Position numbers and translations under genes: made by a program
Shown: one piece after another, positions 1 through 370 of the stretch
Layout of the letters: each line of letters starts with the position of its first letter
How positions within the stretch are numbered: position 1 is the first letter of the stretch
Notes under the pieces: generated by a model
Told to the model about the DNA's origin: nothing
Seen by the model: only the letters and a program-made list of their open reading frames with translations
The model's database searches: none
From: an uncultured Gammaproteobacteria bacterium
GTDB lineage: Bacteria; Patescibacteriota; Patescibacteriia; UBA10025; JAHIVO01
Assembly: GCA_964592105.1 (NCBI GenBank)
Contig: CAZQBL010000017.1
Span: 1-61,066 of the forward strand
Direction: 5' to 3'
Length of the DNA: 61,066 nt

Positions 1-162
1 TATCTGTGACTGGCTTGTTGTGCTTTTCCACCCATAAATACCATTTAAACCGTAATTGTTTTGGATATTTTGCTACCATATGACACTTTCTTTTTTAATA
101 GTTAACATGTGTCACTATCCTACCAGAGAAGTGTCACCAGGTAATGTAAACTATTCAGTAAA

Positions 163-191
163 TTGATTTTTCTGCAAAAATATGCTATACT
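163..191 (+). promoter_or_regulatory. sigma70-type promoter (TTGATT-17-TATACT, extended -10 TG)
   Basis: TTGATT at 163-168, 17-nt spacer, TATACT at 186-191 preceded by TG; predicted start near G199. Confidence 0.6.
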
Positions 192-198
192 TAACTTT

Positions 199-370
199 GG
201 TGATCCGAACAAGCAATTGTTTGTAAGGATCCCAGCCCTCTTTTATAAGAGATAGGGCTCACCCCCACCATTTGTCTCGATTTTGAATTTAAACATCCCC
301 AATGAAAAATTGACAATAATCACCAATTTTTTGGCAGGGATAGCTGTGACAAATGGTGGGGGGTTTTCTA
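199..370 (+). ncRNA. candidate unknown structured small RNA (~170 nt)
   Basis: Begins 7 nt after the -10 box. GGTGA(199-203)/TCACC(259-263) closes two hairpins. CCCCCACCATTTGTC(262-276) pairs with GACAAATGGTGGGGG(348-362), followed by a U-rich tract. No credible ORF. Confidence 0.45.

Follow-up and report, generated by a model that had tools for sequence, protein, structure and literature searches.

In an uncultured member of the Patescibacteria, a SAM-I riboswitch and the metK gene are preceded on the same strand by a segment that carries a promoter and a terminator-like hairpin of its own. The locus thus raises the question whether this segment encodes an independent small RNA (sRNA) or a switch that acts in tandem with SAM-I, the two readings that the first-pass annotation had left side by side. 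To our knowledge, very few ncRNAs other than the universal ones have been described in the Patescibacteria (candidate phyla radiation, CPR), and such genes are almost unexplored. The host lineage is uncultured and has genomes of approximately 1 Mb, in which non-coding DNA that has been retained is likely to matter. The literature on SRP RNA and structured RNAs in CPR, Patescibacteria and Kerfeldbacteria provided nothing relevant, and in the literature searched we found no such RNA reported for the lineage.

The DNA analysed, referred to as the window, is a stretch of 61,066 nucleotides that constitutes the start of contig C17 in a genome of 1.03 Mb and 26 contigs. We report that a discrete small-RNA gene is predicted on the + strand of the window at 163-373, and we consider it probable (roughly 0.6) that this is a stand-alone trans-acting sRNA gene. 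Comparative analysis of related genomes provides insight into its promoter, fold, conservation and position next to the riboswitch, and into how these features bear on its possible role.

Gene anatomy and transcription signals

The features of the region are as follows (window coordinates).

1-158, - strand: end of an IS-like repeat, with a transposase-like ORF from about 79 that is cut off by the contig start
163-191, + strand: predicted sRNA promoter P1, TTGATT (163-168), 17-nt spacer and extended -10 element TGc-TATACT (183-191)
199-233, + strand: hairpin HP1, outer stem GGUGAUCC (199-206)/GGAUCCC (227-233) with U201 bulged
234-259, + strand: hairpin HP2, pyrimidine-rich 5' strand AGCCCUCU paired with purine-rich 3' strand AGAUAGGGCU
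262-362, + strand: hairpin HP3, long predicted terminator hairpin with a perfect 15-bp basal stem (262-276/348-362)
363-373, + strand: U-tract G-UUUU-C-U-A-UUU, predicted 3' end of the sRNA
372-399, + strand: predicted promoter P2 of the SAM-I/metK unit, TTGATC (372-377), 16-nt spacer and TGt-TACAAT (-10 element 394-399)
425-613, + strand: SAM-I aptamer (RF00162, 36.8 bits, E = 1.3e-6) with an 84-nt insertion in P3
about 609-660, + strand: predicted SAM-I terminator, downstream of the aptamer
674-1825, + strand: metK, the ORF that follows the SAM-I terminator

In P1 the TG dinucleotide is located at 183-184 and the -10 element TATACT at 186-191, and transcription is predicted to start at approximately T198/G199, in agreement with the start at G199 proposed in the first-pass annotation. 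The layout TTGAYTTT...TGnTAtAcT, ending 7-8 nt before GGUGAUCC, was found in 19/19 members of the RNA family for which upstream sequence was available, and protein genes elsewhere in the same genome are preceded by promoters that are near-identical to P1. Judged by these sequences, P1 is of the organism's standard strong promoter type. Upstream of P1, the IS-like repeat ends 5 nt before the -35 element; window positions 1-158 are 99.4% identical to G000:C14:474-630, where they correspond to the 5' end of a transposase-like ORF (MVAKYPKQLRFKWYLWVEKHNKPVTD...), and the IS copy probably caused the contig break.

Folding of 199-372 gave three consecutive hairpins, HP1 (199-233), HP2 (234-259) and HP3 (262-362), with a minimum free energy for the + strand of -67.6 kcal/mol and a z-score of -6.75 relative to dinucleotide shuffles (-4.7 for the - strand), i.e. 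the fold of the + strand is far stronger than expected by chance. Within HP1, a 2x2 purine internal loop (G207 A208 / A225 A226) separates the outer stem from an inner stem (209-214/219-224), which is capped by the loop AAUU and not by GCAA as had been suggested. The 5' part was originally drawn as a three-way junction, which had to be revised: its closing helix, GGUGA (199-203)/UCACC (259-263), is specific to the window's genus and has no counterpart elsewhere, whereas family-wide the 5' end GGUGAUCC pairs with GGAUCCC (227-233) to form the bulged hairpin HP1. The hairpin AGCCCU/AGGGCU of the same proposal is present at 234-259, as HP2.

The 15-bp stem 262-276/348-362, previously taken together with the following U residues for a terminator, is indeed perfect and is followed by G-UUUU-C-U-A-UUU, and this arrangement is conserved among the members. 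On sequence criteria, HP3 would thus be an intrinsic (Rho-independent) terminator, since in the window the basal stem CCCCCACC.../...GGUGGGGG leads directly into GUUUUCUAUUU, and the relatives have AAAGCCCGYACC...GGURCGGGCUUUU at this place; in all members the 3' end consists of a GC-rich stem and a U run. An A-rich stretch precedes the terminator stem in most other genera but not in the window. A simple terminator scanner missed HP3 because it was limited to loops of 8 nt. The predicted product is approximately 170 nt long in the window and approximately 122-141 nt in other genera. HP3 of the window includes a lineage-specific extension with the helices 295-299/337-341 and 303-312/324-333. 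The alternative pairing proposed earlier between TTGGTGAT (197-204) and ATCACCAA (319-326) involves this extension; the complementarity is literally there, but it is not a conserved structure, and L088, which is the closest relative, no longer has it (ACCATCAA).

Conservation and phylogenetic range

A BLAST search with 150-420 against 17 genomes of the same GTDB family identified P1 and the first 50-60 nt of the RNA in other genera at 75-87% identity, and the loci found in this way share the three-hairpin layout throughout. The relatives identified in a pattern scan of GTDB species genomes fall among Patescibacteria MAGs, and one genome of the window's family has been deposited under the name Candidatus Kerfeldbacteria (CP181398.1). 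A covariance model, R1, built from the RNAalifold alignment of nine relatives with the window left out, detected a single locus per genome in 14/17 family genomes, representing 12/12 genera. The window copy, which was absent from the training set, scored 65 bits against R1 (E = 3e-16). Six further distinct full-length members were obtained from a metagenome pattern scan, among them L088, which shares the long HP3 and, to judge from its sequence, evidently represents an organism closely related to that of the window.

Outside the family, R1 had no match in five genomes of the order's two sister families. The broadened model R2 gave no credible match in a class sample of 151 genomes (approximately 90 families), the single match having 25.8 bits, and with filters off it detected no copy upstream of SAM-I in 13 other families, nor in the family genomes G009 and G010 or the sister-family genome G018. 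G009 and G010 belong to one genus and are complete or near-complete, and their congener G008 has a divergent copy; the RNA is therefore dispensable in these two. As judged by these sequence searches the RNA is restricted to a single family of ultra-small Patescibacteria and is not indispensable within it.

Covariation within the three hairpins

Following the suggestion that conservation and covariation be examined in relatives, we found the region to be conserved and strongly covarying among 20 sequences. These 20 distinct sequences of 122-172 nt constitute alignment A5, which is model-guided (i.e., fitted to the model) and whose members are all from one family and therefore not independent; on these terms, standard pairs occupy 94.9% of 827 helix cells, and double (compensatory) changes occur in 26/42 pairs. 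When the 3' partners were slid by 1-3 columns as a control, pairing dropped to 38-52% and double changes were found in 7-9 pairs, and none of 500 column shuffles matched the observed A5 values. An independent MAFFT/RNAalifold analysis of nine relatives without the window recovered HP1, HP2 and HP3 with 14 compensatory pairs, in agreement with A5. Since G:U/U:G cells (107) exceed A:C/C:A cells (21) in A5, the + strand is the strand that folds as RNA.

The three hairpins differ in how they vary. HP1 has 13 pairs with 98.1% of the cells paired and double changes in five; its outer stem, GGUGAUCC/GGAUCCC, is nearly invariant, with pairing kept in 20/20 sequences, and it covaries in two of these, L050 (GAUGAUCC/GGAUCUC) and L052 (GGUGGUC/GGACC). 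Informative substitutions are few in HP1, the sequence of both strands being strongly conserved. Its 2x2 loop consists mostly of purines across members (GA or AA opposite AA, GA or, rarely, GC), and its tetraloop is variable except for the last U. For HP2, in which a CCUCU-like strand pairs with an AGRGG-like strand, the corresponding values are seven pairs, 84.3% of the cells paired and double changes in four. In HP3 the two helices of the family model comprise 22 pairs, 17 with double changes. Across the family HP3 is a long, nearly continuous helix with a GC-rich base (AAAGCCCGYACC.../...GGURCGGGC) followed by UUUU, and its apex is the least conserved part. It spans approximately 55-75 nt in other genera, while the window and L088 have approximately 45 extra nt, and L088 retains the pairing of this extension through G:U changes. 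Taken over the whole RNA, conserved positions lie in the helices and the purine internal loop, and terminal loops vary.

Comparison with known RNA families and partners

The window and 17 related loci were searched against Rfam 15 (4227 families) at the gathering score and at E ≤ 10. Nothing was found in 163-373 at the gathering score, and at E ≤ 10 this interval gave noise only (RT-1, miRNA and snoRNA models); in a permissive scan of 1-720 the sole credible match was SAM-I at 425-613, and 13 related loci gave SAM-I and tRNA only. The view that this RNA belongs to none of 6S RNA, SRP RNA, tmRNA or the known riboswitches thus holds at the level of Rfam, with no family matching even at E ≤ 10. 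The RT-1 match at 289-382 on the - strand, which might have pointed to a retron or RT-1 RNA, reached 23.3 bits against a gathering score of 106.4 (E = 0.099) and is restricted to the window-specific extension of HP3; we regard it as a chance match. The tmRNA was found elsewhere in the genome, on contig C7.

SRP RNA was a serious candidate because neither this genome nor any of the 17 genomes of the family, single-contig ones among them, has a detectable copy (RF00169, RF01854). The RNA is a poor SRP RNA, its HP3 apex, the position expected for the loops that bind Ffh, being variable and lacking both the GNAR loop and the AGCA motif, and a motif scan gave no convincing site. On the protein side, the Ffh M domain (PF02978) was found in 0/17 family genomes, and the SRP54-type GTPase (PF00448) was above cut-off in 0/22 genomes of the order, 0/41 of the class sample and 0/61 of the phylum sample; TIGR00959, the full-length Ffh model, gave only matches at the level of the P-loop, and the DTAGR motif was absent from every ORF of the genome. 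Hence no partner for an SRP RNA was detected. Either Ffh and FtsY have been broadly lost in Patescibacteria or the first-look filter has a blind spot, the searches having had no positive control within the phylum. With respect to 6S RNA (RF00013), the genome contains no match to the model, and the three independent hairpins leave the 5' and 3' ends unpaired.

Other modes of action were considered. A CsrA-sequestering sRNA of the CsrB/RsmZ type was rejected because the genome lacks CsrA (no match to PF02599); both GGA motifs of the RNA are also placed inside stems. The 5' octamer GGUGAUCC is exactly complementary to the 3' tail of 16S rRNA (GGAUCACCUCCUUUCU), which is probably a coincidence: the octamer is not over-represented in the genome (26 copies, 32 expected), and the variant in L050 is compensated within HP1 and not towards the rRNA. 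An antisense action on the neighbouring SAM-I/metK leader received no support from RNAduplex predictions in 13 genomes (z from -0.5 to 1.1). Finally, a perfect 15-nt complement of sRNA segment 213-227 is located at G000:C13:62403-62417, in an 821-aa ORF for an HsdM-like N6-adenine DNA methyltransferase (NPPF motif); its BLAST E-value of 0.13 is at chance level, and segment 213-227 varies between genera.

The SAM-I riboswitch and metK

The aptamer at 425-613 is the only SAM-I match in the genome. Owing to the 84-nt insertion in P3 its score of 36.8 bits is below the Rfam gathering score of 44.4, and it is therefore missed by standard annotation. In 13/13 related loci that extend far enough, SAM-I is positioned downstream of the sRNA on the same strand, at a distance of 52-1271 nt. 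The spacing is 52-87 nt in five genera, and where it is larger there are hairpin-rich insertions or whole genes between the two; G004, G007 and G015 have an intervening gene, which in G007 and G015 is on the opposite strand. In most genomes the gene under control of the riboswitch is metK, and in G016 it is an MTHFR-like gene. The upstream neighbours of the sRNA vary by genus (pckA-like, glmU-like, ispH). That these change while the downstream link to SAM-I persists hints at a functional tie to the methionine/SAM unit.

A second promoter at 372-399, which the first-pass annotation suspected of serving metK separately, was recovered here as P2 with TTGATC, a 16-nt spacer, TG and TACAAT. A strong promoter of this kind (score 9-12 of 12) is present in 16/16 SAM-I leaders examined, comprising 15 from the window's family, among them the RNA-less G009 and G010, and one from the sister-family genome G018. 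From the end of its -10 element to the aptamer there are 21-26 nt in the window's family and 15 nt in G018. With its own promoter at each leader, the riboswitch unit is therefore independent of transcription from P1.

Some further observations were made in this neighbourhood. In several genera (L039, L040, L042, L046 and L078) hairpin elements with the pattern UAUGAGGG...CCCUCAUC, in many cases with GCCUCGGGACC...CCCG.AGGCUCGGCA behind them, are inserted ahead of the SAM-I promoter, in the 20-120 nt that follow the sRNA terminator; from their sequences they look like small dispersed (MITE-like) elements, which would explain the variable spacing. In G018 a different segment of approximately 165 nt (L077:1270-1445) is located directly upstream of the SAM-I promoter. 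It has a consensus promoter and a strong terminator at its ends (GCGCAGGAAUC...GAUUCCUGCGCUUUUU) and no match to R2 or Rfam, which makes it a possible analogue of the sRNA at the corresponding site, unrelated to it. In G009 and G010 (L075:1360-1440 and L076:1270-1350) a tiny and very basic ORF (e.g. MNKKGKVAQKKHRRKKGKKVASIRYR) separates ispH from the SAM-I unit, and an ORF of the same type is found directly before the sRNA promoter in G008 (L052, about 1380-1455); it may be a small gene of ribosomal-protein-like type.

Discussion

What chiefly speaks for an independent sRNA and against a tandem switch is that every SAM-I leader has a promoter of its own, and of the two readings proposed at the outset it is the former that the evidence favours. 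We propose that RNA polymerase would start at P1 (163-191), at about G199, and stop at the U-tract at approximately 364-373, giving a transcript with the short hairpins HP1 and HP2 followed by the long GC-based HP3; such RNAs would accumulate as species of 120-170 nt. The sRNA would constitute a transcription unit apart from the SAM-I riboswitch and metK, which would fire from P2. It would most likely act in trans as a folded recognition module, in which a protein or another RNA would probably make contact with the HP1 helix GGUGAUCC/GGAUCCC and its tandem-purine loop, and in which HP3 would serve both as intrinsic terminator and as stabilising 3' hairpin. The invariant helix and purine loop of HP1 suggest that it is the folded element that is recognised and not a linear seed, since conservation resides in helices and internal loop while terminal loops vary. 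Synteny is the reason for suggesting a role tied to methionine/SAM metabolism, given the persistent position beside the only SAM riboswitch detected. Two findings do not sit easily with a trans-acting sRNA: its co-orientation with and constant proximity to SAM-I in 13/13 loci would also fit a role in cis, and G009 and G010, two complete genomes of this family, lack the RNA.

The same proximity recommends the view of the segment as a cis element of the metK unit, with HP1 and HP2 as the sensor (either a new riboswitch or an attenuator that binds a protein), HP3 as a regulated terminator and P1 read-through operating in tandem with SAM-I. The segment is on the same strand and upstream of SAM-I at all 13 testable loci, with 52-87 nt between them in five genera, the downstream link is kept while the upstream neighbours (pckA-like, glmU-like, ispH) differ, and the GGUG at the 5' end and that in the HP3 3' strand could be rivals for pairing with CACC in the HP3 5' strand. 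However, a strong separate promoter intervenes before SAM-I in the 15 family leaders and in G018, whether or not the RNA is present, and genes intervene in G004, G007 and G015, two of them on the opposite strand. The GGUG:CACC antiterminator candidate amounts to just 4-7 bp and is uncompensated in L050 and L044, although such variants are few, and the 5' change in L050 is instead compensated within HP1. Nor is the 197-204/319-326 pairing preserved in L088, conserved positions are found in stems and not in junctions or loops, and no Rfam riboswitch matches. We therefore regard a cis element as unlikely. Less likely still is that the RNA is a dedicated methionine/SAM regulator of a new type, for example a sensor RNA whose folded HP1-HP2 part binds a metabolite or protein and which acts in trans or in cis; if true, it would, together with the adjacent SAM-I, add a second independent control input for metK in minimal, host-dependent bacteria.

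It could also be argued that the RNA product has no function and that the promoter-terminator cassette insulates SAM-I/metK from upstream read-through or is what remains of a decayed leader. In several genomes the U-tract does reach right up to the -35 element of P2 (TTTTTTTATTGACA in G001, TTTTTATTGACA in G008), and G009 and G010 do without the RNA, but an insulator needs no promoter and yet a consensus promoter is present in all members; likewise, termination does not require HP1 and HP2, and yet both are conserved with compensatory changes, and a decaying remnant would not hold 94.9% pairing over 12 genera. This makes a functionless cassette improbable. We consider a highly diverged SRP/4.5S RNA or 6S RNA that escaped the Rfam models to be very improbable: the failure to find SRP RNA or 6S RNA in the genome (SRP RNA in 0/17 family genomes) and a layout of two 5' hairpins and one long hairpin, loosely recalling Alu and S domains, are outweighed by the lack of a detectable Ffh M domain in the family and of an SRP54-type GTPase in the order, class and phylum samples, by an HP3 apex that is least conserved and without GNAR loop and AGCA motif, by the unpaired ends in the case of 6S RNA, and by the absence of the RNA from two complete family genomes. 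A MITE that landed beside the IS, with the 15-bp inverted repeat 262-276/348-362 as its terminal repeats, is scarcely credible; the inverted repeat is perfect and the IS-like repeat ends at window position 158, but the 15-bp arms give self-matches only in the 1.03-Mb genome, so that the element is present in a single copy, and the genome yielded no additional copies with flanking target-site duplications. Moreover, the hairpin is orthologous in 12 genera, where it occupies the same position in the RNA and carries compensatory changes, and its U-tract end resembles an intrinsic terminator.

For the stand-alone sRNA that we favour, the family is now defined by a consensus structure, the A5 alignment (20 sequences) and the models R1 and R2, which can be used for annotation and for searches of metatranscriptomes, and its fixed position by the only detected SAM riboswitch offers a concrete, testable hypothesis. 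Should it be merely an ordinary lineage-specific sRNA, its value would be mainly in improved annotation.

With the neighbouring SAM-I (S-box, RF00162) the sRNA shares the intergenic region, the strand and the type of promoter/terminator architecture. It differs in that 199-373 has no match to the SAM clan at E ≤ 10 and consists of three simple hairpins, whereas SAM-I is a four-way junction with a pseudoknot. Tandem riboswitches on methionine/SAM genes, such as SAM-I and AdoCbl on metE of Bacillus clausii, likewise have two structured RNAs in series, each with its own terminator. Here, in contrast, a conserved strong promoter and sometimes whole genes are situated between the elements, and neither a conserved switching helix nor a known aptamer fold was found.

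Among stand-alone bacterial sRNAs, 6S RNA and CsrB/RsmZ are examples of structured RNAs that bind protein. Unlike 6S RNA, the metK-adjacent sRNA has no 5'/3' closing stem and no central bubble; unlike CsrB/RsmZ it has no GGA motifs in loops, and its genome has no CsrA; and unlike base-pairing sRNAs it has no evident single-stranded conserved seed. With no Rfam family and no paper found to describe it, it represents a new RNA family of an ordinary kind, that of the stand-alone structured bacterial sRNA. As in other stand-alone trans-acting sRNAs with a sigma-70 promoter and an intrinsic terminator, a promoter is followed by a structured RNA of 120-170 nt and a GC-rich hairpin with a U-tract, and, like these, the gene is present in a single copy and restricted to a lineage, with helices that are kept by compensatory changes.
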